NCBI GenBank assembly: GCA_040218735.1
Contig: JAVJQW010000018.1
Span: 96,001 to 160,000 of the forward strand
From: Deltaproteobacteria bacterium
GTDB lineage: Bacteria; Myxococcota; Kuafuiibacteriia; Kuafuiibacteriales; Kuafuiibacteriaceae
Reading direction: 5' to 3'
Length of the DNA stretch: 64,000 bases
Shown here: piece by piece, positions 22,400-38,328 of the stretch
Position numbering within the stretch: position 1 is the stretch's first letter
Layout of the letters: each line of letters begins with the position of its first letter
Translations under genes and position numbers: made by a program
Notes under the pieces: model-generated
The model's input: the letters and a program-made list of their open reading frames with translations, nothing else
Database searches by the model: none
What the model was told of the DNA's origin: nothing

Positions 22400-25300
22400 A
22401 TGCGACAGCTTCCTCGTTTTCTCCCTCTCCTCGGTCTCACAGTCGCCGCGACGCAGCTGGCCTCGCCCCTCGACGCCCAGGCGCAGTCGATCATCCAGTC
22501 CACGTCGTCGATCACGTACGCGGACCTACCGAACCCGGTCGTCGTCTATACGAACGTCGACGACGGCGCGACGCAGGTCACGATCCCGTTCCCCGTCACG
22601 TACTTCGGGAACACGTATACGAGCGTGATGTTTGGTGCGAACGGCGCGATTGCCTTCCCGCCGAACACGAGCGTCAGCCTCGGTAACGCCACACCCGGCA
22701 CCGGGACGCCGCAGAACTACATCGCGCCGTTCTGGGACGATATGCGTCTGTACCCGACGCCGAACCCCGCGGCGCGAATCGCGTACGAGGTGCAAGGGAC
22801 GGCGCCGAACCGGACGATCACGTTCGAGTGGAAGAACATCTCGCGTTGTTGCACGACGGGCGGCGCGGACCTTTCGTATCAGATCCGGTTGTTCGAGGGG
22901 CCGGCGATGCGGGTCGAGATCGACTACGGCCCGGGCTCCGTGACGACCTCGGTCTTCACGGCCACGATGGCGCTCGAGGACGACACCGGCGGCACCTTCT
23001 TCTTGTTCGCGCCGAGCATGTGCACGAACAACTGCACGATCACCGACTTCCAGGCGATGACCAACACGCGCGTCCTGATCATCAACGCGCCCAACCCCGA
23101 GCTGACCGCGCGCTTCGACGCGACCTTCCCGCCCGGGGCGCTGCCCGGCTCGACGTCGACCGCCGACGTGATCCTCACCAACCTCGGCACGCAGACCGCC
23201 AACAACGTCGCGGCCAACCTCTACCTGTCGACGGACGCCACGCTCGACGCCTCCGACATCCTGATCGGCAGCGCGACCGCCACCCTCCCGCAGGGCGACA
23301 ACGTGGTGACGTTCCCCGTGAACATCCCGGCGATGCAGCCGGTCGCGATCTACACGCCGATCGTCGAGGTCGATCCGGCCAATGCGTTCACCGAGATCAA
23401 CGAGGTGGACAACGTGGTCACGGGCCCGCCCTTCGCGACCGGTTACGAGATGGAGCCCACGGACGTCATCGTGACGAACCCCGGTGCGCTCGCGCCCGGG
23501 ATGCCGGTCAACTTCGACATCGAGGTCACGAACAACGGCGCCCCGTTCGCCGGGACGATGATGGTGGAGCTGTGGCTCTCCCTCGACGACACCCTCGACG
23601 CCGGTGACGCCCTGGTCGGCACCGCGCAGGTGACGGCCGTCGGCGACGCCGTCGAGGTGGTCTCCGCGTCCGGCACGATGCCGACGCTGCCGGTCGGCAA
23701 CTACCGCCCCGCGGTGGTCCTCGACCCGATGAACGACGTCGTCGAGGGTGACGAGACCAACAACAGCTTCGTCGGTCAGCCGCAGGTCATCAGCGGGAGC
23801 GACTTCACGGTGACGATGCCGTCGTCGACGCCGGCCGTCGTCGAGCTCCGCGACACGCTCACCGTCACGGCGAACATCCTCTCGCGCGGCATGCCGTTCA
23901 CGGGCACCGTCGACTACGGTGTGTACCTGTCGGCGGACAGCACGTTCGACCCGGGTGACCAGGCCATTCACCGGGACGTCGCGTCGTTCGCGAGCGGACC
24001 GGACGTCACGCTGAACCTGTCGATCCCCGTCGCGGCGCTCCCCGGCGAGCCGCAGCTCGGTCCGGGGGCGTACACGGTGTTCGTCGCGGTCGATCCGATG
24101 AACACGGTGATGGAGGCGCTCGAGGGCAACAACGTCGGCGAGGCCGGCCCGATGGAGCTGCTCGGCGCGGACATCATCGTCACGGACATCACGTCGGCCG
24201 CGGTGGGCTTCATCGACGGTCCGTACGAGATCTCGTTGACCCTCGAAAACGTCGGCGTGGGCGCGGCGCGTGCATTCAACTACGCGTACTACCTGTCGAC
24301 GAACGACATCATTCGCGTGACCGACCAGCAGATCTTCGTCTCGCAGACGGCGACGATCGCGGCCGGCGCCCGCCAGACCTTCACGGACACGGTGGTGCTG
24401 CCGACCTTCACGTCGACGCAGACGCTGTACCTCGGGGTCATCGCCGACATCTTCTCGTCGGTGCCCGAGACCTCGGAGTCGAACAACACGCGGCGCCGCA
24501 CCGACCCGATCAGCATCGTATTCCCGATCCCCGACCTCGTCGCGCAGGTCGTGGGCACGGCGACCTCGGCGGCGGCGGGCGAGGACCTGTCGGTCACGCG
24601 CATCATCGAGAACATCGGCGTCGCGCCGTCCGGCTCGTTCGAGTACGCGTACTACCTGTCGACCGACTCGCAGATCGACCCGGCGGTGGACCTCCGCATC
24701 GGCACGTTCCAGGGGACGCTCAACACGGGTGAGGATCAGTACGGCATCGACACGATGTTGATCCCCTCGACGATCCCGGCGGGCGACTACTACGTCGGCC
24801 TCCTCATGGACCCGGCGAACGCCGTGGTCGAGGTCGACGACACCAACAACGCGGCGACCACCGTCGGCACCATTCCGGTGTTCGAGGCGGCGATTCAGTT
24901 CACCACGGTGAACCTCCCGCGCGGCACGGTCGGTGTGCCGTACGAGGTCGGCCTCTACGCGCAGGGCGGCCCGCTCGGCATCACCTGGAGTGTGTCCGGC
25001 GGCGCGCTGCCCGACGGCCTGACGCTCGACGCCGCCTCCGGCATCATCAGCGGCACGCCGACGCGCGAGGGAGTGTTCGACGTTCGCTTCCGCGCGAGCA
25101 GCGGCACCGCCTCGACGGACGCCGAGTTCTCGATCCGCGTCGTGCCGCCGACGGTGGCCCTCACGGTCGCGACGCCGGCCCTCCCGGCCGGTCTGACCAG
25201 CCGCCCGTACGCGGCGCAGCTCCTCGCGGTCGGCGGTGTCCCGCCGTACACGTGGAGCGCGATGGGGGCGCTCCCGCAGGGCCTCGTGTTCACCGAGGAC

Positions 25301-26095
25301 GGCGCCATCACGGGCACGCCGGTCGCGCTCGGCGACTTCGCGGTGCGCTACACGGTGACCGACGACCTCGAAGCGACGGCGACGAAGGAGCTCGTCATCA
25401 AGGTCGTCTCCGGCGGTGAGTCGCTCCAGATTCGTCAGCTGCCGCTGCCGGACGCGACGCTCGGCGAGGAGTACTGCAACCCGGTGCCGGAGACGCTCCA
25501 GGCCAACAACGGTACGGAGCCGTACTCGTGGTCGATCGTCGGCGACGGCGTGCCCGGGATGACGCTGTCGCCGTCGGGTGAGCTCTGCGGGGTGCCGACG
25601 CGCGCTGGGGACTTCCGGTTCGTGGTGCGTGTGCAGGACGCGTCGCTCATCTACGACACGTCGCTGTTCCTCCTGACGGTGAACGACGGCAACGAGCTCG
25701 CCATCTCGACGACGACGCTCGACCCGGGCCAGGTCAACGAGGCGTACACCGCGCAGGTCACCGCGATCCTCGGGGCTGAGCCGTACGTGTTCTCGCTCGT
25801 CGAGGGTTACGGTGAGCTGCCGCCGGGGCTGACGGTCTCCGAGTCCGGTCAGATCGCCGGGACGCCGACCGAGGCCGGCAACTTCGCGTTCGCCGTGCAG
25901 GTCGTCGACGACGCCAACGCGGTCGACATCCAGGCGATGTCGCTGCTCATCGCGCCGGCGCCGCAGTCGCTCGACGGCGGCGGTGGTGACGGCTGCAGCT
26001 GTGCGGCCGACGCGTCGACGCCGCGTGACGCGCCGTGGGCTTCGCTCGCGTTGGTGGCGTTGCTCGGGCTGGTCCTCGTCCGTCGTCGCCGCTGA
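22400..26095 (+). CDS. large surface protein: CARDB-like and He_PIG repeats, MYXO-CTERM-like tail
   Basis: Signal peptide, repeated YLS.D...D..N...E..E.NN units, GG.PPY Ig repeats, GCSCA...hydrophobic...RRRR end. Confidence 0.85.
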   Translation: MRQLPRFLPLLGLTVAATQLASPLDAQAQSIIQSTSSITYADLPNPVVVYTNVDDGATQVTIPFPVTYFGNTYTSVMFGANGAIAFPPNTSVSLGNATPGTGTPQNYIAPFWDDMRLYPTPNPAARIAYEVQGTAPNRTITFEWKNISRCCTTGGADLSYQIRLFEGPAMRVEIDYGPGSVTTSVFTATMALEDDTGGTFFLFAPSMCTNNCTITDFQAMTNTRVLIINAPNPELTARFDATFPPGALPGSTSTADVILTNLGTQTANNVAANLYLSTDATLDASDILIGSATATLPQGDNVVTFPVNIPAMQPVAIYTPIVEVDPANAFTEINEVDNVVTGPPFATGYEMEPTDVIVTNPGALAPGMPVNFDIEVTNNGAPFAGTMMVELWLSLDDTLDAGDALVGTAQVTAVGDAVEVVSASGTMPTLPVGNYRPAVVLDPMNDVVEGDETNNSFVGQPQVISGSDFTVTMPSSTPAVVELRDTLTVTANILSRGMPFTGTVDYGVYLSADSTFDPGDQAIHRDVASFASGPDVTLNLSIPVAALPGEPQLGPGAYTVFVAVDPMNTVMEALEGNNVGEAGPMELLGADIIVTDITSAAVGFIDGPYEISLTLENVGVGAARAFNYAYYLSTNDIIRVTDQQIFVSQTATIAAGARQTFTDTVVLPTFTSTQTLYLGVIADIFSSVPETSESNNTRRRTDPISIVFPIPDLVAQVVGTATSAAAGEDLSVTRIIENIGVAPSGSFEYAYYLSTDSQIDPAVDLRIGTFQGTLNTGEDQYGIDTMLIPSTIPAGDYYVGLLMDPANAVVEVDDTNNAATTVGTIPVFEAAIQFTTVNLPRGTVGVPYEVGLYAQGGPLGITWSVSGGALPDGLTLDAASGIISGTPTREGVFDVRFRASSGTASTDAEFSIRVVPPTVALTVATPALPAGLTSRPYAAQLLAVGGVPPYTWSAMGALPQGLVFTEDGAITGTPVALGDFAVRYTVTDDLEATATKELVIKVVSGGESLQIRQLPLPDATLGEEYCNPVPETLQANNGTEPYSWSIVGDGVPGMTLSPSGELCGVPTRAGDFRFVVRVQDASLIYDTSLFLLTVNDGNELAISTTTLDPGQVNEAYTAQVTAILGAEPYVFSLVEGYGELPPGLTVSESGQIAGTPTEAGNFAFAVQVVDDANAVDIQAMSLLIAPAPQSLDGGGGDGCSCAADASTPRDAPWASLALVALLGLVLVRRRR

Positions 26096-26506: not shown

Positions 26507-26711
26507 GTGGGTGAAAGAAGCACGGTGTGGGCCACGCGCCGAACGTTCGAATTTCATTGCGCGTTTCATCCGTGTTCGTCCGAGCGTCCGAAAAGTCCGG
26601 CGCGGGCCGTCATCGACGACGCCGATCGGGCCGAATGACGTCGGCGGAGCGACCGCGGCCGGCTGCGCGACATCCGGAGCGCCTCGTGTGACGATGACCG
26701 CCCTGAGCGCG

Positions 26712-27731
26712 ATGAACGACGATAAGCGCCGCTCGCCCCGCGTGCCGATCGAGCTGTGGGTGATGGTGGAGGGCGTCGACGACTTCATGGTGAAGCGTCG
26801 GGGTGACCTCAGCTCCACCGGCGTGTCGTTCGAGGCGGACCGCAGGCTGGCCGAGGTCGGGTCGCTCGAATACCTCCACCTCGCGCTCGGCGATCGTTCC
26901 GAAGCGGTCACCGTCATGGGGCAGCTTGTTCGGGTCATGAGCATCGAGGACGAGGGCGTCGGTCGCGTCGCGCACGCGTTCGAGCTGTTCCCGCAGAACG
27001 AAGACATCCGCGCGCACCTCGACCGGTTCGTGGAGAGCGCGGGCGGTGTTCCGCTCCTGAAGACGATCGATCTCACCGACGACGTCCGACCCGCCGACGG
27101 TGCGGTCTTCCGCCTGAACATCGACAAGCTCGCGTTCGAGGCGACGTGGCCGGTGGCGGTGGGCACCAAGGTGCAAGTTGCGTTGACATCGCCGGACGGA
27201 CGCACCCGCATCCCGTTCGAGGGTCTCGTCACCGAGGTTCGACCCGACGGTGCGATGCACCACGTCGACGTGGCGGTTTCGGAGCCGGGCGTCCGGTCGG
27301 CGCCGGCGGTGTCGACGTTGACCAAGGCCAAGTCGATCACGGGGTCGATCGACCTGCTGTTCAGCGAGTGGATCGCGAGCCAAGATCTCTCCGCGTCGCC
27401 GCGTCAGCACCTCGTGGGGCAGCTCGACCGCGTGCCACTGAGCGGTTTGCTCACGTTGTTCGACATGGAGCGAATGTCGGGTGAGCTCGCGATCGGCCTC
27501 GATGCGCAGGACTACACGCTGTTCCTCGCGGAGGGGAAGCTGCTCGACATCGAACCCGCGCCGACCGAAGCCGAGATGCGCGAGGCGCTGCATCGGATCT
27601 CCAGCACGGTGTCGGGCACGTTCGAGTTTCGGGCGTGCGCCGTCGAGCGGGACGACCGCATCCAGCAGAGCACCACCGCGCTGCTCCTCGACCTCGCGCG
27701 CGAACGCGACGAGGGCGTCTGGTCAGACTGA
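26712..27731 (+). CDS. PilZ domain + DUF4388/PATAN-like domain protein
   Basis: RRSPR (RxxxR) and DLSSTG (DxSxxG). C-terminal GQL...LSGLL...SGEL...LF...G...GTFEF...LLLD. Confidence 0.8.
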   Translation: MNDDKRRSPRVPIELWVMVEGVDDFMVKRRGDLSSTGVSFEADRRLAEVGSLEYLHLALGDRSEAVTVMGQLVRVMSIEDEGVGRVAHAFELFPQNEDIRAHLDRFVESAGGVPLLKTIDLTDDVRPADGAVFRLNIDKLAFEATWPVAVGTKVQVALTSPDGRTRIPFEGLVTEVRPDGAMHHVDVAVSEPGVRSAPAVSTLTKAKSITGSIDLLFSEWIASQDLSASPRQHLVGQLDRVPLSGLLTLFDMERMSGELAIGLDAQDYTLFLAEGKLLDIEPAPTEAEMREALHRISSTVSGTFEFRACAVERDDRIQQSTTALLLDLARERDEGVWSD

Positions 27732-28016
27732 TCAGACCTTCCAGCGCGGGTCGTTCAAATCCACGAAACCGCCGGACGACTGGCGCTGCTCGAGTGCGCG
27801 CATCGCGGCGTCGGTGGCGTCCGTTCCGCGCACTCGGCCCGTCATGCGCGCGACCTCGCCGCCGTCTTGTCCGGGGAGGATGAGGCCACCGCCGTCCTTG
27901 GGTTGGATGAGTTGGGGTGGCGTGAGTCGTTTGTCCCGCTCCGGGAGCTGCAACCCATCGGGGCGGATGAGTTGGGGGCCCTTCGGGACGATGAGTTTCT
28001 GCGACATTCGACTCAC
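27732..28016 (-). CDS. small disordered protein with five LxxP repeats
   Basis: KLIVP, QLIRP, GLQLP, QLIQP, GLILP. GTGA overlap with the upstream gene. Confidence 0.6.
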   Translation of the reverse strand: MSRMSQKLIVPKGPQLIRPDGLQLPERDKRLTPPQLIQPKDGGGLILPGQDGGEVARMTGRVRGTDATDAAMRALEQRQSSGGFVDLNDPRWKV

Positions 28017-28972
28017 TCCAGCTCGAGGGCCGCCGTCGTCCCTGCGCCGATCGACTCGACGAGCCCGTGGTTCTCGGGGACCTCGACGGTGTTCTTGAAC
28101 ATGTTCCGCTTCACCTGTGCGGCCTCCTGACCCACCGCCAGGCCGGCCGGGGTGATCTGCGCGCGGCGCGCGGCGGACTCGAGCGGACGGAGGCTCGTCT
28201 TGGGTTTCTCCGATTTCGCGAGCATCAACGCCATGGGGCCGGAGCCGACCGACGTCTTCATCATCTTCGTCGCGAGCTCCATCATTCCTGCGTCCGCGGG
28301 TTCACCCGCGACGTTGCGGAACTTGTCCTCGATCGACCACTTGGCGAGCTTCTCGTCGAGCCACGCACGGTCGGTGATGTCGGGGCGCTCCTTGCGATCC
28401 TTGAACTTCCCGAAGGTCTCGATGACCGACGCTCGATCGGCGAGGCCGTCGGGCGGCGTCACCTCGCGGAGAGGGATGAGGTCGTCGTCATACGCGATCA
28501 GGCCGTAGGAGGCGCCGAGCGAAGTTGCGACTTCTTGGGCGACGGTCATCGCGTCCTTGAGGAGATCGATCTCGCGGTTTTCCTTGAGGAAGGCGGTGGG
28601 TTTGTACTGACAGCCCTCGCGCCCGCAGAACGCACACACCTCGCCGGCCTCGCCGCTGATGTCGAACGAGTAGATGATTCTGAAATCCGACGGGTCGAGA
28701 CCTTCGCGCGTTGCGACGCCGCGCACCGCTGACGCTTGTTTGTCGATCAGCGGTTGCAGTCGCGCGACGCGTTCGGGGTAGGTCTCTTTCTTCGCCGCGG
28801 TCGCACCGATCACCTGCGCGATGCGAACTCGATCGGGTCCTTCGCGAACGACGTTGCCTTCGACTTCGCGAACCGGTTCGCGCTCGAGGCTGACCTCGCG
28901 CTGCCGCTCCGCTGCGGGCGCCGCTGCAGGCTGGCTTGCAGAGGGGAAGAAGCCGGTACCACTGCTCTTCAT
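28013..28972 (-). CDS. hypothetical protein with degenerate vWA (CobT/NorD-like) domain and Cys cluster
   Basis: IIYSFDISG strand, helix, YGLIAYDD strand, late D, MALMLA strand, AGLAVG...F. CAFC...C insert. Confidence 0.6.
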   Translation of the reverse strand: MKSSGTGFFPSASQPAAAPAAERQREVSLEREPVREVEGNVVREGPDRVRIAQVIGATAAKKETYPERVARLQPLIDKQASAVRGVATREGLDPSDFRIIYSFDISGEAGEVCAFCGREGCQYKPTAFLKENREIDLLKDAMTVAQEVATSLGASYGLIAYDDDLIPLREVTPPDGLADRASVIETFGKFKDRKERPDITDRAWLDEKLAKWSIEDKFRNVAGEPADAGMMELATKMMKTSVGSGPMALMLAKSEKPKTSLRPLESAARRAQITPAGLAVGQEAAQVKRNMFKNTVEVPENHGLVESIGAGTTAALELE

Positions 28973-29063
28973 GTTCGGCTTATCGGAAGGGCCCTTCGGT
29001 CGGTGTGTAAGTTTTTGGGAGCATATGTCTCAGGAATTGTCATGATTCGGGACAACTTCCCAC

Positions 29064-29090
29064 GAAACACTACAATCGAGACGGCGATAC
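29064..29090 (+). promoter_or_regulatory. weak sigma28-like promoter match
   Basis: GAAA-N15-GGCGATAC versus TAAA-N15-GCCGATAA, 9 nt before ATG 29100. Confidence 0.25.
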
Positions 29091-29099
29091 AGAGGACGT

Positions 29100-31493
29100 A
29101 TGCGGATGTACGCTCCTCGGGTACAGAAGGACCCCACGACTCTCTTCACCGCTCCCGACCAGGCGCGCATTGCAAGCCAGGTTGCAGCGGAGCACGGGAC
29201 GCTCAACGCGGAGACGCTCGCGCAGTGGGCCGCGAACCACCGCGGCGGCGCGGACTCCTCGGTGCTCGAGAACATGTTCTCCGTGCTGCAGACGGGGGCA
29301 GCGCCCGCACCGCAGCGCGGTGAGCTCGGCGCCCGCACGAAGAACTCGCGCCTCGCGGAGAAGACGGAGGCGATCGAGACCGAGTTCAAGTCGGCGTTCG
29401 GTCAGTTCGTCATCGGCCAGAAGCACGCGGTCGGTCGCCTCGCGCAGAAGATGGCGGCGCGTCGGCTGCGCGAATCGGACGACCCCACGCCGATGAACAT
29501 GGCGCTCCCGGGACCTCCCGGCGTCGGCAAGACCGAGTCGATCAAGGCGATGGCGCACGCCATCCACGGCGACGCGAACATGTTCATCGAGATCAACTGC
29601 TCGACGTTCCAGAAGCCGGAGGACCTCGCGAAGCTGATCGGTGCGCCTCCCGGCTACGTCGGCTCGGGTCAGACGGCCGACTCCTCGCCGATGTCGATGA
29701 AGAACATCCAGGCGAAGTTCGGCGACAAGCGGCCCATCCTCATCCTCTGGGACGAGGTCGACAAGATCGGTGGCGGCAACACGAAGGTGCAGGAGGACTT
29801 CTTCAAGATCCTCGGCAACTTCATGCAGTCGGGGAAGTTCCAGTTCAACGACAACTGCCCGAACACCGAGGTCCCGGACGTCATCAACTTCTTCACGTCC
29901 AACTCGGGCATGGAGTCGGCCGCGGGCCTGAAGGGCAAGTCGCTGCGCGAGCACTACATCAAGTCGATGCGCACCGTCCTCCCGCAGCACATCCAGAGCC
30001 GTATCGCGTCGAACTTCATCGGGTTCGATCCGCTCACGACGACGGACCGGATGGACATCGCGCGGCTGAAGATCGGCAAGAAGCTGCGCGCCGCCGAGAA
30101 GCGGACGGCGGACGACCGCGGCTTCAGCATCAACCTCGACGTGAACGACGACGTGCTCCGTCTCTTCGCGGAGATCACGGGCAGCGACCTGTTCGGTGCG
30201 CGTCCGCTCGAAGACCTGATCCGTGACTACGTCGAGCCGCTGATTCCGGACGTCCGTCGTCGCGCCCAGGCCGGCGAGGTCTGGCACCTCGTGATGAAGA
30301 AGACCGACGTCGACAGCGAGGGGAACGAGCGCGAGATCAGCCGCGTCGAGATCAACAAGCTGAAGCGGGCGTTCCTCGACTCGCTCGAGACGGGCAGCGC
30401 GCCGGAGGGCGTCGACTTCTCGACCTTCCCGATCGAGTTCAAGTGCCTGAACCCGAAGCGCCGGCTGTTCCCGTACGACGGCGTCGTGCCGCGGACGCCG
30501 GGCGCGGAGATGTTCCCCCTAGGCGCGGGCGCCATCGGTGGCCAGCGCTTCTTCTTCACGAACCAGGGCGGGATCCACGACGGCAACCAGCTCTACATCA
30601 TGAAGCCGGGGCTCACCGAGATCGAAGACCGCTTCGACGCCGTGAAGATCCCGGACGAGCTCGCCAACGCGAACACCTACGCGCGCGGCGCGCAGATCGA
30701 CGACGACCACGCGATCTTCTACGCGGTCAACGCGCCGGAGAAGGGTGACGAGGCCGAGATCGCCACGTTCCTCGCGACGGCGAAGGGGCGCTCGATCGAC
30801 TTCGAGAAGGTGCCCTCACCGGGGTCCGCGGTGGACTGGCCGGAGCTCGCGCTCGTCGGACCGGCGCTGGTCGGCGCCGAGGGCAAGGCGCTGCTCTGGG
30901 GCGGTCGCCGCATGGAGAAGCTCTCCGACGGCGACTGGAGTGTCTCTCCGGATCCGGCGCGAATGATCGGCGAGCCGATCGAAAACGGCGCCTACCTCTT
31001 CGACGTCAAGGCGAAGACGTGGACGCACATCGAAGACGCGCCGGCCAGCGGGCGCATCGGGGCCGCGGTGACCGTCCACGACGGCAAGGCGTTCCTGATC
31101 GGCGGCGAGGAGATCAAGCGCGACGACCACCAGCGGGTCGACACTTCGCAGTCCTCGACCGCGGTCGACATCTTCGACTTCGACACCCAGACGTTCACGA
31201 AGGGCACGCCGCTGCCCAACGCAGTCCAGTGGGCCTCCGCGTTCGCGGAGCCGAGCGGACAGGTGTCGGTGGTCGGCGGCCTGCAGCTCTCCGAGGGCGG
31301 TCGGGTTCCGAACTTCACGAAGGTGATGCGGATGCTCGGCGCCAACGGCGAGTGGCTCGAGGAGCCGATCGAGAAGCTCGGCGTGAACGTCGCGATCATC
31401 CCGCACGTGGACGGCGACCAGATCGTCGGCCCGTTCGGCGAAGACGGTGAGTTCCTCATCCGTCGCCCGGCGCGAGAGGACGAGGAGCTGTAA
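29100..31493 (+). CDS. single ClpB/ClpA-NBD2-like AAA+ ATPase fused to Kelch-like repeats
   Basis: VIGQ, GPPGVGKT, KLIGAPPGYVG, LWDEVDK, TSN, Arg finger SRI, FGARPL. LLWGG/FLIGG/VVGG...YLFD..KTWT Kelch pattern. Confidence 0.85.
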   Translation: MRMYAPRVQKDPTTLFTAPDQARIASQVAAEHGTLNAETLAQWAANHRGGADSSVLENMFSVLQTGAAPAPQRGELGARTKNSRLAEKTEAIETEFKSAFGQFVIGQKHAVGRLAQKMAARRLRESDDPTPMNMALPGPPGVGKTESIKAMAHAIHGDANMFIEINCSTFQKPEDLAKLIGAPPGYVGSGQTADSSPMSMKNIQAKFGDKRPILILWDEVDKIGGGNTKVQEDFFKILGNFMQSGKFQFNDNCPNTEVPDVINFFTSNSGMESAAGLKGKSLREHYIKSMRTVLPQHIQSRIASNFIGFDPLTTTDRMDIARLKIGKKLRAAEKRTADDRGFSINLDVNDDVLRLFAEITGSDLFGARPLEDLIRDYVEPLIPDVRRRAQAGEVWHLVMKKTDVDSEGNEREISRVEINKLKRAFLDSLETGSAPEGVDFSTFPIEFKCLNPKRRLFPYDGVVPRTPGAEMFPLGAGAIGGQRFFFTNQGGIHDGNQLYIMKPGLTEIEDRFDAVKIPDELANANTYARGAQIDDDHAIFYAVNAPEKGDEAEIATFLATAKGRSIDFEKVPSPGSAVDWPELALVGPALVGAEGKALLWGGRRMEKLSDGDWSVSPDPARMIGEPIENGAYLFDVKAKTWTHIEDAPASGRIGAAVTVHDGKAFLIGGEEIKRDDHQRVDTSQSSTAVDIFDFDTQTFTKGTPLPNAVQWASAFAEPSGQVSVVGGLQLSEGGRVPNFTKVMRMLGANGEWLEEPIEKLGVNVAIIPHVDGDQIVGPFGEDGEFLIRRPAREDEEL

Positions 31494-31496
31494 GTC

Positions 31497-33644
31497 GTGC
31501 CACTCGCGCTGCCCAAGGTGACGGCCAACCCCGTCATCCCCATCGATGAGTTCCCGCTCGAGCGGCGGGACATCGAGTGGTTGACGAAGGAGCTCGGCGA
31601 GCGCCCGACGCTCGACGACGTCGATCGTTTCGCCAACAAGTTCACGCGCAAGGCGATCGACGACGACGAGCAGCGCCGTCGCCTCTCCGTGCTGACCGGC
31701 TTGCAGGAGTCCGTACGCGGCAACTTCGTCGTGCGCGGCGACAAGTCGATCAGCGCGGCGGGCAAGATGCGTCTGTCGGAGCTCCAGCTCCTGGCGCTGA
31801 CCGGCGCGCGCCCCGTGAACGGCGAGCTCGACAAGGCGGTCGAGGTGAAGGAGGGCATGGAGCCCTTCCTCATCGGGCAGCAGCACCTTCGGCAGAAGTT
31901 CGCCGACTTCTACGCGTCGACGCAGGCGCCCGGTCGGCGCACGGCGCCGGTGATGGTGCTGGCGGGGCCCGACGGGCACGGCAAGGCGCAGGCGATCGAA
32001 GGTTACGCGGCGACGGCGCACAGCGGCTTCGTTCACCGCGTCGACCTGGCCGGGCTCACTGACCGCGACGCGCCGGCGATCCTCGGCGGACCGTTGTCGA
32101 TCGATCAGCTGCGCGACGTCGCGAAGAGCGGTGGCGTGGTCTGGCTCCAGGGGTTGGAGGCGATGAATTCGCCGAAGCTCGCCACTGGAATCGCGGCGCT
32201 CCTCAACATGCCGAAGCTGACCGGGAACACGAAGCTCCCGTTCTTCCTCGACTTCGAAGTGAAGTCCGAGGACCTCGAGGACGACGAGCGCGGCGAGATC
32301 ACGCGGCAGCTCGCGAAGGCGCTCGACGTCGCCGGCCTCCGGACCAAGGCGACGCAGGGAGCGATCAAACCCCTCGGCCCCGACGCGATGCTCGTCTACG
32401 CGGAGTCGGTGCTGAAGGAGCTCATGGCGGCGGAAGGGCTCGAGGACGTGCACATCGCGTTCGACCCGGACGCTCGCGCGTTCCTCGGTGAGCTGCTCGC
32501 CACGCCGCACAAGCCGCTCGTGGAGCTGGAAGCGCGCTTGCGCGAGCTGATCGTTCGGCACCTCGACACGCAGACCTCGGTGTACCGCAAGGGCGGCTTC
32601 ATTCGCATCGCGCTCGGCAAGCCGTTCCAGGACGACCCCGCGCTCCGCGAGCGGCTGATCTCTCGTTTCTCCGAGAAGTACGTCGACCTGTTCGAAGGGC
32701 ACGCGGCGTTCGAGCCGCTGGAGACCGGACGCATCGTCGACCGGAACGACCTCGCCGAGGAGCTCATCGAGACCTCGACGAAGTACGCCCACCTGTTGCG
32801 CTACTTCGGTCAGAGCCTCGAGCTCGGCGAGCCGGTTCAGGTCGTCGACGACGTGGTCGAGGCCTCGCACGGGCTCGCCGAGGTGCTCCAGCGCGTCGAG
32901 GCCGACCTCGAGCGCGGCGCCAAGACCCGCGTGAAGAAGAAGCTGGGCGCGGTGAGCGAGGACCTGTTCCGTGAGCTCGAGAAGGCGGCGCAGACCTACG
33001 CGACCTCGGTCACGCAGGCGTCGGCCGAGCCGATGCTCGTGCTCCCCGAACAGCTGAAGACGAGCGTCGCGCTCCGGCAGCAGCTGTACGAGCTCGTCGA
33101 CATGTACGGGGCGGGTGCGCCGATCAAGCCGCAGCAGGTCCCGGCCGCGGGGCGCCTCGCCGGACAGTTCGCACAGGCGTTCCAGGCGCACGGTGACCAG
33201 GTCGCCCAGTCGGAGCCGGGCCGGCGCTTCACGAACCTACGCGTGGGCGTCGAGGCCCTCGCGGCGGTCGTGGACATGGCGGCGATGGCGGCGAACGCCA
33301 ACATCGAGGAGATGCAGATCGACATCATCCGCCGCGACGACGCGAAGGCGTGTCGCGAGGCGCTCGAGCAGGCGCGCTCCATCCTGGTGCCGTACGCGCT
33401 CGACAACGTGTTGCGCTACGGGCCGCTCGTGGATGCCGTCCACATGGCGGGCTACGACGAGCGCGCGCCGCTGCTGATGAAGATGGTCGACATGGCGAAG
33501 GACCTGCTCGAAGCGATGCAGGGTGAAGAGGAAGAGTCGGCTCGCGAGCGCTCGGCGCTGGCGGTGTCGGTGCTCCGCGACTTCTTGAACGAGACGCTCG
33601 CGCCGCACCTCGAAGAGGACAAGGACAATGACGATCAAGGCTGA
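31497..33644 (+). CDS. degenerate ClpB-NBD2-like AAA+ (pseudo-ATPase) with helical C-terminus
   Basis: LIGQ, GPDGHGKA, VVWLQG at the Walker B position, KPL...IAFDPDARAFL small-domain pattern. Confidence 0.7.
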   Translation: MPLALPKVTANPVIPIDEFPLERRDIEWLTKELGERPTLDDVDRFANKFTRKAIDDDEQRRRLSVLTGLQESVRGNFVVRGDKSISAAGKMRLSELQLLALTGARPVNGELDKAVEVKEGMEPFLIGQQHLRQKFADFYASTQAPGRRTAPVMVLAGPDGHGKAQAIEGYAATAHSGFVHRVDLAGLTDRDAPAILGGPLSIDQLRDVAKSGGVVWLQGLEAMNSPKLATGIAALLNMPKLTGNTKLPFFLDFEVKSEDLEDDERGEITRQLAKALDVAGLRTKATQGAIKPLGPDAMLVYAESVLKELMAAEGLEDVHIAFDPDARAFLGELLATPHKPLVELEARLRELIVRHLDTQTSVYRKGGFIRIALGKPFQDDPALRERLISRFSEKYVDLFEGHAAFEPLETGRIVDRNDLAEELIETSTKYAHLLRYFGQSLELGEPVQVVDDVVEASHGLAEVLQRVEADLERGAKTRVKKKLGAVSEDLFRELEKAAQTYATSVTQASAEPMLVLPEQLKTSVALRQQLYELVDMYGAGAPIKPQQVPAAGRLAGQFAQAFQAHGDQVAQSEPGRRFTNLRVGVEALAAVVDMAAMAANANIEEMQIDIIRRDDAKACREALEQARSILVPYALDNVLRYGPLVDAVHMAGYDERAPLLMKMVDMAKDLLEAMQGEEEESARERSALAVSVLRDFLNETLAPHLEEDKDNDDQG

Positions 33645-34665
33645 CAACGCACCGGATCCGGTTCGCCTCGCGAACGAGATGCTCGCGCAGTTCCAGTCGA
33701 ACGTGGCGCGCGCCGGCGTGAAGGGCAAAGACCCCGACGCGATGACGTTCGACAAGGACGCGTTCGAGATCGTGGCGAGCAGCGTATCGCCGGAGTTCGC
33801 GGAGCTTCGGAGTGTGCTGGGCGCGCGGCTCGACCTGTACGACCTGGAGGCCTCCGCCGTCCCGAACCCACGCGGCGGTGGTTGGTTCCTTCGGCTCGAA
33901 GACGCCAAGGGGCAGCAGGTCGACTTCCGCGTGGACCGCGGAGACCTCTCGGAGATCCGCGGGTTCCTGCACGACCACGCGGGCCTCGGCTACATGAATG
34001 TGGAGCTCGACAACGAAGAGGGCATCCAGCAGCTCGCGCGACTGATCGCGACCGCGACGGTGAGCCCGGACTTCAAGGCCAAGGTGCCCCTCGCGGCGCG
34101 TTACGTCGGTGACGTTCGTCGTGCGCTCGTTCCGTCGGCCAAGAAGCAGACGGCGCGCGCGGTGCTCGCGCTGAACAACGCCCTCCAGGGGGCGGCGCAG
34201 GGCAGTGCGGCGGACATGGAGAAGCTGATTACCGCGTACATCGAGCTCGGGTTCAGCTTCCGCAAGTTCAGCAAGGTGTACGGGGACTCGGACAAGGAGT
34301 CGCTCTCGATCGAGTTCGCCGACAAGAACGGCAACGAGGTTCGCTTCGAGGTCGAGGCGGTCATGGACGACGAGAACGACCGCGTGAAGGGCCACGAGTG
34401 CAAGATGTCCTGGTCGGTGCGTGAGCAGAAGAACAACGCCACGGCGCCGAACAACGCGAACCAGATCAACGAGTGGATCCGCGAGTTCGGCATCAAGGAC
34501 GCCGGCAGCAACAACAACTCCAACGGCACGCGCGAGGGTGAGCGTTCGCTCGACCGCGCCAGCGAGAAGAAGTTCGTCGTCGAGCTGATGCAGTACGCGA
34601 AGAACCGCAAGTGGATCACGATCGACACGTCGAAGGGTAGCCTCGGGAGGCACCTCAAGCTGTGA
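33628..34665 (+). CDS. hypothetical protein, divergent member of the family of the next two genes
   Basis: AVPNPRGGGWFLRLEDAKGQQVD...HDHAGLGY...LARLIATA matches both downstream proteins. Overlaps both neighbours. Confidence 0.75.
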   Translation: MTIKADNAPDPVRLANEMLAQFQSNVARAGVKGKDPDAMTFDKDAFEIVASSVSPEFAELRSVLGARLDLYDLEASAVPNPRGGGWFLRLEDAKGQQVDFRVDRGDLSEIRGFLHDHAGLGYMNVELDNEEGIQQLARLIATATVSPDFKAKVPLAARYVGDVRRALVPSAKKQTARAVLALNNALQGAAQGSAADMEKLITAYIELGFSFRKFSKVYGDSDKESLSIEFADKNGNEVRFEVEAVMDDENDRVKGHECKMSWSVREQKNNATAPNNANQINEWIREFGIKDAGSNNNSNGTREGERSLDRASEKKFVVELMQYAKNRKWITIDTSKGSLGRHLKL

Positions 34666-36197
34666 CCCGCATCGACGACAGAGCCGCGCCGAAGACTCCG
34701 GTCGACGCCCCCGACGAACCCGCGCCGGCGACGCCGAGCGCGGACGTCGTGGACCGCGCGACGCGGATTCAGGATCTGCTCGGCGGCCTGTCGGTCCCCT
34801 TCTCCGCGAGTGACATCCCGGACGGGTTGATTCGTGCGCCGGAGCGTCGGGACATCGAAGTGCGTCGACGCGAGCAACCGCGGTTGCGGTCGGAGGGGCC
34901 CACGCTCGACCCGCGCAGCTTCGACGTCATGAACCGCATGGTGGTCGCGAACACGCACTACCTGAAGCGAGAGCTCGGACGTCGCTTCGAGTTCGTCGGC
35001 GCGGTCGCGGACGCGGTCCGCACGCCGTCCGGACGTTGGTACTTCCAGGTCAAGGACCCGACCGGGCAGAAGATGGACGTGCTCTTCGGCGACGGCGTGA
35101 AGGCCGCCGCGAAGTTCATGATGCACCAGCACGCCGGTCGCCAGGGGTACTCGGACGAGCTGTCGCCCGAGGCGACGTTGGAGCTCGCGAAGCTCGTCAG
35201 CACCGCGCGGCTGCGCCCGGCGCCGAAGAAACAAGTCTCGGAGTTCGTGGTGGACGACGAGGAGGAGCTGCCGGAGGACCGTGAGGAGCTCGCGAAGGAA
35301 GAGTACCGCGCCGAGGACCACGCGGCTGCGAAGCAGTACCTGAAGGAGATGGTGGACCGCACGCCGAAGCGCCTCCCGCCGCTGTTGCGCGAGCTGGCGC
35401 GCAAGGAGGCGGCGGACCTCGCGGAGGCGGATCTCGATCGGCTGATCGGGACGATCGCGGGCAAGCCGATCATGCTCCGTGCGTTCGAGCTCGACACGTA
35501 CGACGGCAACACGTTGCGCCTCGCGCGGACCGACGCCGCCGGCAACGTCTCACTGATCGAGCTGATGATTCAGGAGTTCGAGGACCGCGAGCCGGGCGCC
35601 ATGCTCCGCGTGGCGATCCCGCCGGAGGACCCGCCGGCCCGGGAGTTCGATCCGGACCTCGCGAAGAACCTCCAGATCATGGACGACGTCGACGACGACC
35701 TGCTGACGCCGACGTTCGAGGTCACGTCTTCCTCGCTCGGGCTCGCGCTGTTTCGGTTCGCGACCGACAAACTCGCGTACCCCCCGGTGGAGGTCGACCA
35801 GCACGACGAGCTGCTGAAGTTCGTGGATCCGAAGCGTGAGCACATCGTCGCGGACGAGATCGACCCGGAGGACCTCGACGATGACGAACGCGCGGCGCTC
35901 GAGAAGCCGTTCACCACGGCCGAGACGCGCAAGTTCCGGCAGGCCTTGAAGTGGTTGGACGCGAACTGGGACGGGCTCATCTCGACGGGCCTGTTCAACA
36001 ACAACGGCATCCAGACCGGCTACCTGACGTACTACGGCGACAACGCCAACCAGGAGTTCGCGAAGCTCAAGCAGGTCTGCGGGCTGCTCGCCTCCGACAA
36101 ACGCTTCGTGATGGCGATGTCGCAGCCGTCGTACATCAACCGCGAGGTCATCCAGACGACGCTCGAGAAACTCGAGAACCAGGCGGAGGCCGCCTAA
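34662..36197 (+). CDS. hypothetical acidic protein (paralog A)
   Basis: Long high-GC3 ORF, GTGA-coupled, clearly homologous to 36208..37698. Confidence 0.8.
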   Translation: MTRIDDRAAPKTPVDAPDEPAPATPSADVVDRATRIQDLLGGLSVPFSASDIPDGLIRAPERRDIEVRRREQPRLRSEGPTLDPRSFDVMNRMVVANTHYLKRELGRRFEFVGAVADAVRTPSGRWYFQVKDPTGQKMDVLFGDGVKAAAKFMMHQHAGRQGYSDELSPEATLELAKLVSTARLRPAPKKQVSEFVVDDEEELPEDREELAKEEYRAEDHAAAKQYLKEMVDRTPKRLPPLLRELARKEAADLAEADLDRLIGTIAGKPIMLRAFELDTYDGNTLRLARTDAAGNVSLIELMIQEFEDREPGAMLRVAIPPEDPPAREFDPDLAKNLQIMDDVDDDLLTPTFEVTSSSLGLALFRFATDKLAYPPVEVDQHDELLKFVDPKREHIVADEIDPEDLDDDERAALEKPFTTAETRKFRQALKWLDANWDGLISTGLFNNNGIQTGYLTYYGDNANQEFAKLKQVCGLLASDKRFVMAMSQPSYINREVIQTTLEKLENQAEAA

Positions 36198-36207
36198 GGC
36201 GCACACC

Positions 36208-37698
36208 ATGAGCGTTCGAGCACGGGGTCGAGGTGAGGTCGCGTACACGCCGTCCGCCGACGTCGTGGATCGTGCGACGAAGATCCAGGAGCGGCTCGGC
36301 GCGATGTCCGTTCCGTTCGCGGCGAGCGAGATCCCGGACGGATTGCTCCGCGTGCCGGAGCGTCAGTCGCTGGAGGTCCGGCAGCGTCGCCTCGGCGGAA
36401 CGGAGACAGCGGCGTCGGTGCTCGACGCACGGAGCTTCGACGTCCTCAACCGGATGACGGTGATGAAGACCCAGCACCTCAAACACGAGCTGGGTCGTCA
36501 CTTCGAGTTCGTGGGCGCGAACGCCGACGCGGTGCGCACGCCGTCGGGGCGCTGGTACTTCCGCGTCACGGATCCGCGCGGACAGAAGATGGACGTGATC
36601 TTCGGCGGTGGGCTGTGCAGCGGTGCGCGATTCATGATGCACGCCCACGTGGGACGCCAGGGGTACTCGGACGAGCTGAGCCCGGAGGCGACCCTGGAGC
36701 TCGCGCGGCTGGTGTCGACGGCGCGGCTGCGTCCGGCGCCCAAGAAGCAGGAAGACGAGTTCGAGGTGCAGCTCGACGACGACGAGCAGCTCCCCGAGGA
36801 CGCGGAGGGCCTCGCGAAGGAGGAGTACCGCGCCGAGGATCTGCGCGACGCCAAGGCGTACCTGAAGCACCTGGTGGACCGCGTGCCGGCACGTCTGCCG
36901 TCGTTGCTGCGGGAGGTCGCGCGCAAGGCGCCCGAGGACTACGTCGAAGCGGATCTGGATCGGCTCCTCGGGATGATCGCGGACGAACCGATCATGCTGC
37001 GTGCGTTCGACGTCGACAGCTACGACGGCAACTCACTCCGCCTGTCGCGGACCGACAGCGAGGGCAACGTCGCGCTGATCGAGCTGATGATTCAGGAGTA
37101 CGAAGATCGCGATCCGGGTGCGCTCTTGCGCGTGGCGATGCCGCCCGAGGCGTCCGCGCAGCGGGCGTATCAGCCGGACCTCGAGAACGACCTGAAGATC
37201 ATCGACGACATCGACGACGACCTGCTCACGCCGTACTTCGAGGTCACCAACGCGTCGCTTGGTGTCGCGCTCCTGCAGTTCGCCGCGGACCACGCGGACC
37301 CGCCGATCTCCGTCGAGGACAAGGACACCCTCGTCGGCTACCTCGACTTCTCGAAGCGCCCCGCGCCCGAGCCGGACCCGGAAGAGGTCGACGACGAGGC
37401 CCCGGTCGCCAAACACACCCAGCCGCTGAACAAACAGGAGATCCGCACGCTCCGCCGCGCGCTCGGGTGGCTCGACGCGAACTGGGAGGAGTACCACAAG
37501 GGCAACCTGCGGAACGGCCCGCAGTTCGGGTACCTCGCGTACACCGCGGACAACTGCCGGGTGCCGAAGCTCGCGGAGTGTTATCGCGTGGTGGAGTCGG
37601 ACCAGCGCTTCAAGCAGATGCTGATGGCGCACCACCGCACGTACATGACTCGGGACACGGTGCAGGCCGTGCTCGGGGAGCTGAAGGCGATGCGCTGA
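36208..37698 (+). CDS. hypothetical acidic protein (paralog B)
   Basis: Shares DAVRTPSGRWYF, GRQGYSDELSPEATLELA, LIELMIQE, DDDLLTP, WLDANW with paralog A. Confidence 0.8.
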   Translation: MSVRARGRGEVAYTPSADVVDRATKIQERLGAMSVPFAASEIPDGLLRVPERQSLEVRQRRLGGTETAASVLDARSFDVLNRMTVMKTQHLKHELGRHFEFVGANADAVRTPSGRWYFRVTDPRGQKMDVIFGGGLCSGARFMMHAHVGRQGYSDELSPEATLELARLVSTARLRPAPKKQEDEFEVQLDDDEQLPEDAEGLAKEEYRAEDLRDAKAYLKHLVDRVPARLPSLLREVARKAPEDYVEADLDRLLGMIADEPIMLRAFDVDSYDGNSLRLSRTDSEGNVALIELMIQEYEDRDPGALLRVAMPPEASAQRAYQPDLENDLKIIDDIDDDLLTPYFEVTNASLGVALLQFAADHADPPISVEDKDTLVGYLDFSKRPAPEPDPEEVDDEAPVAKHTQPLNKQEIRTLRRALGWLDANWEEYHKGNLRNGPQFGYLAYTADNCRVPKLAECYRVVESDQRFKQMLMAHHRTYMTRDTVQAVLGELKAMR

Positions 37699-37701
37699 GG
37701 C

Positions 37702-38328
37702 TCACCCGTGGGTGAGGCCCTTCTCCTTCGCGATACCGGCGTTGATCTCGTTCGCCTTGATGAGGCCCGGGCGTGCGTTCAACCGTTCGAGGTACGCCAT
37801 GTACTCGGGGCGCTTCTCCAGCATCCCGAACTGCGTCATGAACCGAACCGTGCCGCCGAACACGACGTCGGCCATCGTGAACTGCTCGCCGCACAGGAAG
37901 GGCCCGTCGCCGATCGCACCGGTGATGGTGTCGAGCATCTCCTCGTAGGTGCCCCAGCCGATGCGGCTCGGTTCGAACGCCCACTCGGAGGAGTGCGCCG
38001 CGCAACCCGGCTCGATCACGGACGGTGCGTAGAAGGACCAACGTAGGTAGGCGGCGCGCTCGGGTGCGTCGTGTGCGGGGGCGAGGCGTCCGAGCGCATA
38101 GCGGTCCGCGAGGTACAACGCGATCGCCGCGGCCTCGGTGACGATCGTGTCGCCGTCGATCAGCGTCGGCAGCTTGCCCATGCGGTTCTTGTTCTTGATG
38201 TCGGGCTGCTTGTGCTCGCCCTTCATGATGTCGACGTAGACGAGCTCGTACGGCTCGCCCACCTCTTCGAGGGCCCAGACGGTCCCGCCGGCGCGCGTGA
38301 ATGGGTGGTGAAGGAGCTTCAGTGTCAC
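37702..38328 (-). CDS. glutathione S-transferase family protein
   Basis: N.MGKLPTL...TEAAAIALYLA, FLCGEQFTMADV. Confidence 0.93.
   Translation of the reverse strand: MTLKLLHHPFTRAGGTVWALEEVGEPYELVYVDIMKGEHKQPDIKNKNRMGKLPTLIDGDTIVTEAAAIALYLADRYALGRLAPAHDAPERAAYLRWSFYAPSVIEPGCAAHSSEWAFEPSRIGWGTYEEMLDTITGAIGDGPFLCGEQFTMADVVFGGTVRFMTQFGMLEKRPEYMAYLERLNARPGLIKANEINAGIAKEKGLTHG

Follow-up and report, generated by a model that had tools for sequence, protein, structure and literature searches.

Hsp100/Clp machines are, in the textbook picture, unfoldases that have two rings or are coupled to ClpP. The one single-ring example known to us that is built on the second nucleotide-binding domain (NBD2) and brings its own recognition domain is metazoan Skd3. 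In Mg-chelatase (BchI/BchD), an active AAA+ subunit, an inactive AAA+ subunit and a vWA part make up one machine. Here we describe a gene, P0001, found in 64,000 nucleotides of DNA from a Deltaproteobacteria bacterium (assembly GCA_040218735.1, contig JAVJQW010000018.1, positions 96,001 to 160,000; this whole stretch is called the window, and coordinates given without a locus name are positions in it). Its predicted product joins one Hsp100-type ring module to a Kelch propeller, and the gene that follows, P0002, encodes a catalytically dead paralog of the ATPase half. With a probability that we put at about 0.5, P0001 hydrolyses ATP as one subunit of a small accessory machine for protein remodelling, which may be a conflict system, and is not a lone chaperone. 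The estimate draws on sequence, structural models and analogy with described systems.

The locus adds a bacterial family in which one Hsp100-type ring carrying a Kelch propeller is linked to a pseudo-ATPase paralog and whose variable payloads are of the kind that marks conflict systems. Should the two proteins co-assemble, a Clp scaffold would carry a naturally occurring hetero-ring of active and dead subunits, which would offer a tractable model for the way in which inactive subunits tune AAA+ threading motors. The locus might also represent a new defence or antagonism module in multicellular bacteria of the Myxococcota type.

A single Hsp100 D2-type AAA+ module fused to a Kelch propeller

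The gene and the parts of its product are as follows.

29100-31493, + strand: AAA+-Kelch gene P0001, an open reading frame (ORF) of 797 amino acids (aa); likely start ATG 29106, giving 795 aa
29100-29384, + strand: N-terminal helical domain of P0001, residues 1-95, common to the dead paralog P0002
29385-30299, + strand: single Hsp100 D2-type AAA+ module of P0001, residues ~96-400, large subdomain plus ClpB_D2-small
29511-29534, + strand: Walker A GPPGVGKT, residues 138-145
29640-29663, + strand: pore loop GAPPGYVG, residues 181-188
29748-29765, + strand: Walker B WDEVDK, residues 217-222
29895-29903, + strand: sensor-1 TSN, residues 266-268
30000-30002, + strand: Arg finger R301
30195-30209, + strand: sensor-2 GARPL, residues 366-370
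30432-31469, + strand: predicted six-bladed Kelch beta-propeller, residues ~445-790 (AlphaFold2, Foldseek, VIA-align and Pfam)

Over the ATPase half, Pfam AAA_2 matched residues 133-302 (E 1.5e-11, 45.1 bits against a cut-off of 27) and ClpB_D2-small matched residues 327-382 (E 5.9e-05, 23.5 bits against 21.9). An earlier note, made from the letters of this DNA alone, had listed Walker A and B, the pore loop, sensor-1, the Arg finger and sensor-2, and each of them was found where it had been placed; Walker B lies in the hhhhDE context ILILWDE at residues 213-219. The AlphaFold2 (AF2) model of full-length P0001, built on a 27-sequence alignment, had a mean predicted local distance difference test score (pLDDT) of 87.1 and a predicted template-modelling score (pTM) of 0.72. 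Within residues 1-95 it contains helices at 19-32, 37-46 and 53-65, and then a long linker helix. For the first half of the model, Foldseek returned structures of ClpC, ClpB and Skd3 (7tts_C, 7ttr_C), and the isolated ClpB C-terminal domain (4fcv_A) matched with a template-modelling (TM) score of 0.77 by target.

P0001 shares with the D2 ring of ClpB, Hsp104, ClpA and ClpC the AAA+ large and small subdomains, Walker A and B, a GYVG-type pore loop, sensor-1, the Arg finger and a GAR sensor-2. In contrast with these proteins, it holds one ring module, without Clp_N, NBD1 or the coiled-coil middle domain, and is ~28% identical to ClpB NBD2. PDB chains of ClpB, Hsp104, ClpC and Skd3 matched it at E 1e-19 to 1e-10, those of ClpB and Hsp104 at E 1e-17 to 1e-19, over NBD2 only. 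The NCBIfam models for TssH, ClpB, ClpA, ClpG and ClpK likewise matched with their second-ring part only and far under their cut-offs, the ClpB model reaching 80.7 bits against 1232.1 over positions 561-824 of 853 only. Clp_N, NBD1, the middle domain and AAA_lid_9 were not detected in P0001 by Pfam, by NCBIfam or in the AF2 model, which agrees with the absence of the first three as claimed before. A ClpB/Hsp104 disaggregase proper was ruled out, as only ~95 residues precede the module and only the second-ring part of the models is matched.

The best NCBIfam match was to TssH/ClpV1 (E 2e-24), which would make P0001 a ClpV-like ATPase of a secretion system. Its score was 85.9 bits against a cut-off of 884.95, it covered model positions 558-832 only, and it was barely better than the match to ClpB. 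No secretion-system genes, those of the type VI secretion system (T6SS) included, were seen in the neighbourhood of P0001 in the window or in the other scanned loci. With a sub-cut-off match limited to the second ring and no T6SS neighbours, this reading was rejected as extremely unlikely.

The likeness to Skd3 (human CLPB) that had been drawn earlier stood as far as architecture is concerned: each protein has one NBD2-type ring and, attached to it, a repeat domain whose presumed task is to handle substrates, and the two match at E ~1e-11 and in fold. Membership in the same group did not stand. Whereas Skd3 carries ankyrin repeats at its N-terminus, P0001 carries a Kelch domain at its C-terminus, is bacterial and has a dead-paralog partner. 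No ankyrin repeat was matched by Pfam in P0001, and there was no sign of direct descent.

The C-terminal half required more than one line of evidence. Pfam Kelch_6 on P0001 alone scored 23.9 bits, just under the cut-off of 25.3. In the family of 27 sequences described below, the same model matched 21 members at E <=0.01, the best at 4.5e-12. A separate AF2 model of residues 425-797 (373 residues) was all-beta, with a pLDDT of 87.7 and a pTM of 0.85, and Foldseek paired it with the Kelch domains of NS1-BP, KLHDC2 and KLHL12 at E ~1e-12. The model was also compared by VIA-align with 48,161 chains, and the matches spanned model residues 28-370:

ESP, 5gq0: Z 25.6, 309 residues aligned to the P0001 propeller model
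YjhT, 2uvk: Z 25.4, 298 residues aligned
KLHDC3: Z 25.2, 297 residues aligned
KLHL12: Z 24.9, 259 residues aligned

The range of Z 24-26 also takes in the Kelch domains of KLHL17 and Keap1, whereas non-Kelch six-bladed folds such as sialidases scored lower, at Z 17-18. The Kelch domains of KLHL12, KLHL17, Keap1, YjhT and ESP are all taken by us to have six blades. Because the family-wide Kelch_6 matches, the C-terminal model and the Foldseek and VIA-align results point the same way, we regard the Kelch signal as real despite the sub-cut-off Pfam score. By profile and model, the C-terminal domain of P0001 is a six-bladed Kelch propeller. Its conserved positions are GGR 601-603 and GG 668-669, invariant in 27/27 sequences, together with the invariant G726; E670 is kept in 25/27, and W613, W641 and G727 are nearly invariant.

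The Kelch-like C-terminus that the earlier note had proposed was upheld, with ~345 residues modelling as a propeller, and domain search and structure prediction both bear out the combination of a single NBD2-type ring with Kelch repeats. As judged from sequence and predicted fold, P0001 is one Hsp100 D2-type AAA+ module fused by way of a short linker to a six-bladed Kelch propeller.

GC content by codon position in the P0001 ORF is 0.64/0.43/0.93, in a genome of 69% GC. The frame is taken as the real coding frame, since GC at the third codon position (GC3) is 0.93 against 0.43 at position 2. A GAGGA box lies 9 nt upstream of the second in-frame ATG (29106), and the sole near-identical database protein found by a word-indexed homologue search, P0004, is 795 aa long. 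On account of this box and this length, the true start is probably 29106 rather than 29100. The divergent intergenic region ahead of the gene is 127 bp long and holds one sigma-70-like site, compared with a mean of 0.0 in 50 shuffles:

29049-29076, + strand: sigma-70-like promoter match GGGACA-16-TACAAT, a consensus match only

The AAA+-Kelch family and its distribution

An exhaustive HMMER search with P0001 against 1.84 billion representatives returned 31 proteins at E <=1e-30. Twenty-six of these, 769-817 aa in length, aligned over nearly the full query at 29-37% identity; the rest of the 35 top-ranked matches (P0127-P0161) were fragmentary, represented only an N- or C-terminal part, or matched in two stretches. 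The family alignment was made from P0001 and the 26 full-length relatives (n = 27), leaving out the 611-aa P0147 and P0154 onward. That P0001 is an orphan, as the word-indexed search had suggested, was overturned by the exhaustive search; in the former, P0004 was followed by two-ring proteins of the ClpB, ClpC and TssH type at ~28% identity.

The Walker A Lys is present in 27/27 sequences and the Walker B Asp and Glu in 26/27 each. Sensor-1 Asn (N268) and the Arg finger (R301) are found in all 27, the sensor-2 Arg (R368) in 24, and a Tyr or Phe in the pore loop in 22; ClpB_D2-small was matched by 22/27 members as well. Since the catalytic and pore-loop residues are kept across the 27 sequences, the family is, on this conservation, under selection as a working, threading ATPase.

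Many proteins of 300-420 aa matched residues ~95-395 of P0001 only in the HMMER search. Proteins with a single AAA_2 module are frequent, and it is the fusion to Kelch that is rare. A pattern search (GPPGVGKTE; [IV]L[LWF]DExDKIG) gave at least 80 loci. Among the matches listed, the ATPase core only (79-417) was hit and none, Chloroflexota and Pelagibacter records for example, was a family member. In the sampled genomes of the phylum, which is probably Myxococcota in view of the MYXO-CTERM signal on a neighbouring 1231-aa protein, the C-terminal 397 residues were matched at E <=1e-8 in 7 of 401, one of them by a 263-aa fragment only. The AAA+-Kelch gene occurs in 2 of 20 genomes of the window's order and was not found in a same-genus genome that is 75% complete. 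Database names of the family members are generic ('AAA family ATPase', 'SpoVK/Ycf46/Vps4 family', 'DNA polymerase III delta prime subunit'). No paper on this Clp-Kelch fusion was found by title or abstract, a search to which subscription journals and supplementary files did not belong.

Two deviating forms were observed. At L020 8785-11174 (G348:C12), a frameshift immediately ahead of sensor-2 breaks the AAA+-Kelch orthologue in two, which reflects either a pseudogene or an assembly error. At L023 9614-10405 (G092:C17), a 263-aa ORF consists of propeller blades only (query 533-736, E 5e-19), with no ATPase part or partner gene nearby; it is a remnant or else a partial propeller that stands by itself.

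P0001 is single-copy in its 11.6-Mb genome, which has separate two-ring Clp/Hsp100 genes elsewhere. The same genome also contains an unusual Clp-like cluster (G000:C58:19408-28501) of adjacent ORFs of 842, 1313 and 1139 aa, each with an Hsp100 D2-type module; the 1139-aa ORF gave only one strong AAA+ match.

A catalytically dead paralog accompanies the AAA+-Kelch gene

The gene directly downstream of P0001 is described by two features.

31497-33644, + strand: catalytically dead paralog P0002, 715 aa; N-domain plus degenerate AAA+ module (~10-400), then a variable helical C-terminal half
31965-31988, + strand: degenerate P-loop GPDGHGKA in the degenerate AAA+ module of P0002

P0002 starts 4 nt after the P0001 stop, and the two genes are read as translationally coupled. 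It gave no Pfam match, and no peptidase signal was seen in its own helical C-terminus. BLAST against P0001 found a weak likeness near IGQ and the P-loop region (E 6e-04). When the P0002 family (n = 8) was aligned with the AAA+-Kelch family by hhalign, the probability was 99.1% and E 1.3e-18 over 369 columns. Because this profile-profile match runs over residues ~10-400 of both families, P0002 is, at the level of profiles, a paralog of the N-domain and AAA+ module of P0001. The P-loop of the eight partners follows the pattern G-x-x-G-H-G-K-x; its Lys is kept in 7/8 and is followed by no invariant Thr or Ser. All eight have x-Gly at the two Walker B positions. The partners have lost the pore-loop segment as well as the sensor-2 Arg, and 5/8 still have an Arg at the finger position.

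The association of the two genes was followed in the five other loci that have a full-length AAA+-Kelch gene (L013, L019, L020, L021 and L022). A P0002 homologue is present at the AAA+-Kelch gene in 5/5, the first ~400 residues aligning at E 1e-15 to 1e-49; it is the next gene in L013, L019, L020 and L021, whereas in L022 a single gene lies in between. The P0002-family profile matched 6 of the 401 phylum genomes, exactly the six with a full-length AAA+-Kelch gene, the profile having been built from those genomes. A complex prediction for residues 1-400 of P0001 with residues 1-400 of P0002 scored 0.00 against a mark of 0.32, in a run without controls, and weighs neither for nor against binding.

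This linkage bears on the proposal, made in the earlier note, of a stand-alone unfoldase, a truly autonomous homo-hexameric unfoldase or disaggregase whose propeller picks the substrates and whose neighbours are unrelated. P0001 has, and its family conserves, every motif that a ring threading on its own would need, databases hold many single-module AAA_2 proteins of 300-420 aa, and in Skd3, according to the part of its literature available to us, one NBD2-type ring is enough for disaggregation. That the propeller selects substrates is a reasonable suggestion. On the other side are the dead paralog, present at 5/5 other loci, confined to the same six of 401 genomes and 4 nt away from P0001, and a rare, patchy distribution that speaks against general proteostasis. 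The motif-complete ring of the proposal therefore stands, but its autonomy is doubtful, with a dead paralog at the AAA+-Kelch gene in all five other loci. Tight linkage and co-occurrence with this paralog make P0001 probably part of a multi-protein module, and we consider a stand-alone machine unlikely. A role as general disaggregase was rejected on the dead-paralog linkage and the rare, patchy distribution.

Beyond residue ~400, the P0002-type partners differ in sequence and in length (535-927 aa). The variation is found even within one genome. At L021 1-9172 (G046:C26), four tandem dead-paralog copies follow one AAA+-Kelch gene. Three of them are complete (637, 927 and 766 aa), and the last is truncated after 722+ aa, where the locus stops; the N-terminal ~400 residues are in common and the C-terminal regions are unlike. 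In the G011 partner, the C-terminal 262 residues (L013 10201-10986) form an HExxH region fused to the dead AAA+ module. This region matched Pfam ATLF with 24.3 bits (E 2.9e-05), under the cut-off of 27.4, and Pro-Pro endopeptidase/Zmp1 chains in the PDB at E 0.002-0.01.

An M34/PPEP-like region with HExxH at the end of the G011 partner would suit a two-part AAA+ protease, in which the active ring unfolds and the peptidase of the dead paralog cuts, as in FtsH or ClpAP but in separate proteins. The peptidase-like end, however, is found in 1/8 partners and lies below cut-off, and P0002 of the window is helical with no peptidase signal. The segment after sensor-1 (P0001 270-279, ...AAGLKG...), which we take to be the place of the IGF/IGL ClpP-docking loop in ClpP-binding unfoldases, varies across the family when the alignment (A1) is inspected by eye, which may be a further point against proteolysis. 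We judge a protease of this kind to be very unlikely.

The five-gene operon and its locus-specific genes

Four further genes were assigned to the module, one divergent and three downstream.

28013-28972, - strand: divergent 319-aa partner P0279; GC3 0.82-0.83; module homologues in 3/5 other loci
33628-34665, + strand: P0124, 345 aa, first of three locus-specific paralogs; GC3 0.91; overlaps the P0002 end by 17 nt
34662-36197, + strand: P0125, 511 aa, second paralog; overlaps P0124 by 4 nt
36208-37698, + strand: P0126, 496 aa, third paralog; operon end, the next gene being a convergent glutathione S-transferase (GST) gene

Given the GC3 and the spacing of the genes, with gaps or overlaps of 4, -17, -4 and 10 nt, positions 29100-37698 are read from the sequence as one five-gene operon. 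P0125 and P0126 are 59% identical, and P0124 is weakly related to both (E 1e-9 to 8e-12). P0124 gave no Pfam, NCBIfam or PADLOC match; P0125 had no family match save a weak one to PADLOC CARF1--CARF_HEPN (E 0.0039, 14.2 bits, residues 200-246), which is not relied on. No relatives of P0124-P0126 were detectable in the five other loci, which bear their own paralog arrays, such as the four lineage-specific paralogous genes after the module in L020 (13721-19302). Profile-profile comparisons revealed no homology between the arrays of different loci, nor between an array and the P0002 family. The flanks are made up of housekeeping genes and are unlike at each locus (glutamine synthetase, GST, trehalose synthesis, S-adenosylmethionine synthetase, acetate kinase).

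Homologues of the divergent P0279 lie inside the module in L013, L022 and L020 (BLAST E 1e-58 to 7e-31), and with the window the protein belongs to the module at 4/6 loci. D104, C113 and C116 are invariant in the four sequences. The Atlas model of P0279 (pLDDT 0.67) aligned with VWA-domain clusters at TM 0.49-0.56. P0279 is possibly VWA-like, which on this model is a lead only.

An active AAA+ protein, a dead AAA+ protein and a VWA-like protein together recall the activases that serve one client, and P0001 could be part of a dedicated assembly or activation chaperone for a single client complex, like CbbQ/CbbO, NorQ/NorD or Mg-chelatase I/D, with no conflict role. The three co-transcribed proteins of the window's operon (P0124-P0126) could be its clients, and the housekeeping flanks would fit as well. 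The putative clients are, however, not conserved, as the neighbour families differ from locus to locus without profile-level homology. Variable C-termini of the partners and four tandem copies in one genome would also be unexpected for a fixed client. We hold a dedicated chaperone to be possible but rather doubtful.

A proposed active/dead AAA+ machine

How, then, might the accessory machine favoured above work? P0001 would assemble as a hexameric ring and thread a polypeptide through its pore loops. The top face of the Kelch propeller, where the invariant R603 and the near-invariant E670 lie beside the GG doublets, may recruit the target or an adaptor. The dead paralog would join the ring, or dock onto it, through the common N-domain and AAA+ surfaces and would bring a variable, lineage-specific output domain. 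Its retained Arg at the finger position would suit stimulation of the ATP site of the neighbouring subunit, and the possibly VWA-like P0279 could serve as an additional adaptor. Such a machine would work on the principle of Mg-chelatase BchI/BchD or of the MoxR-vWA ternary systems, on a Clp/Hsp100 scaffold. Because of the patchy distribution, the variable partner C-termini, the tandem copies and the locus-specific arrays, the most likely role, judged from sequence and analogy, would be an inducible conflict function (immunity or antagonism) or some other specialised remodelling rather than general proteostasis.

Pfam AAA_5, presumably the family that holds MoxR-type ATPases, matched P0001 weakly (17.1 bits against a cut-off of 22) and does not place it among the MoxR-vWA systems. 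As far as the available part of the description goes (Kaur et al. 2020, PMC7159879), those systems resemble the present one in combining an active AAA+ ATPase with an inactive NTPase-fold partner and a vWA adaptor, the last a possibility here, and also in their variable effector-like parts and their preference for multicellular bacteria. Whereas their ATPase is of the MoxR/BchI type, the ATPase here belongs to the Clp/Hsp100 group, and the vWA fold of P0279 is a lead only. In the text of PMC7159879 the word 'Kelch' does not occur, and 'ClpB' occurs once, in a reference.

Another likeness is to the PADLOC systems Dodola (DolB) and PDC-M37 (PDC-M37B), which have a ClpB-like single AAA+ protein that P0001 matches at E 1e-10 to 7e-12. 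In contrast to a full-length correspondence, the matches involve residues 83-272 of P0001 only, with positions 120-206 of 375 in the DolB model and 130-297 of 390 in the PDC-M37B model, and neither model includes a Kelch domain. Four of the five neighbouring proteins matched no PADLOC model, and none matched a partner model of Dodola or PDC-M37.

Several points weigh against the proposed machine and its conflict role. The gene context is known from six loci only, and the partner profile comes from the same genomes, so that divergent partners could escape it. A recognisable enzyme-like C-terminus was seen in 1/8 partners only, under the Pfam cut-off. No integrase, phage or defence genes were found in the scanned flanks, and no known defence-system model of PADLOC was matched beyond the P0001 ATPase core, save for the weak CARF_HEPN match in P0125. 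For P0279, the VWA assignment comes from the Atlas structure comparison alone (TM ~0.55, model pLDDT 0.67). Neither a PDB profile search nor Pfam at E up to 10 gave a VWA sequence match, and the MIDAS-like (metal ion-dependent adhesion site) motif D-x-[ST]-x-x is incomplete, without the second Ser of DxSxS.

A more specific version of the accessory machine is put forward tentatively, and we think it somewhat unlikely in its entirety. The locus would then represent an undescribed class of nucleoside triphosphate-dependent conflict system on a Clp/Hsp100 ring. The AAA+-Kelch protein would sense or grip the target, and the co-assembled dead paralog would carry diversifying effectors (a PPEP/M34-like peptidase in one lineage) that are released or activated by unfolding. 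The VWA-like adaptor and the lineage-specific paralog arrays would complete the system.

Metatranscriptomic signal and flanking genes

One metatranscriptomic run contained 6% of the sampled words; its contigs, 151-410 nt long and 90-99% identical, align with parts of the operon. Depth was seen in 26/30 operon bins, the uncovered bins carrying no information, and a fraction of 0.96 of what aligned runs on into unlike sequence; DNA may be in the library. We take this as a hint that the operon of a close relative was present, not as proof of transcription.

Downstream of the operon, the GST gene (37702-38328, - strand) is preceded on its strand by a gene (38353-40950, - strand) whose 865-aa product has HEAT repeats and, at its end, a SEC-C zinc motif. 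A GST homologue (E 1.8e-14) is also located ~2 kb beyond the module in G011 (L013 15022-15687). Since GST homologues flank the module in both genomes, the window genome and G011 may share the insertion site of the module. Just upstream of the module, positions 26511-27731 (+ strand) encode a 406-aa protein with PilZ (E 1.5e-10) and DUF4388 (E 2.9e-11) domains, which from these matches is possibly a cyclic di-GMP-linked regulator. The product of a gene further upstream (22400-26095, + strand) is 1231 aa long; it contains five CARDB and three He_PIG Ig-like repeats, and its C-terminus carries a MYXO-CTERM sorting signal, scoring 20.5 bits where the cut-off is 20.

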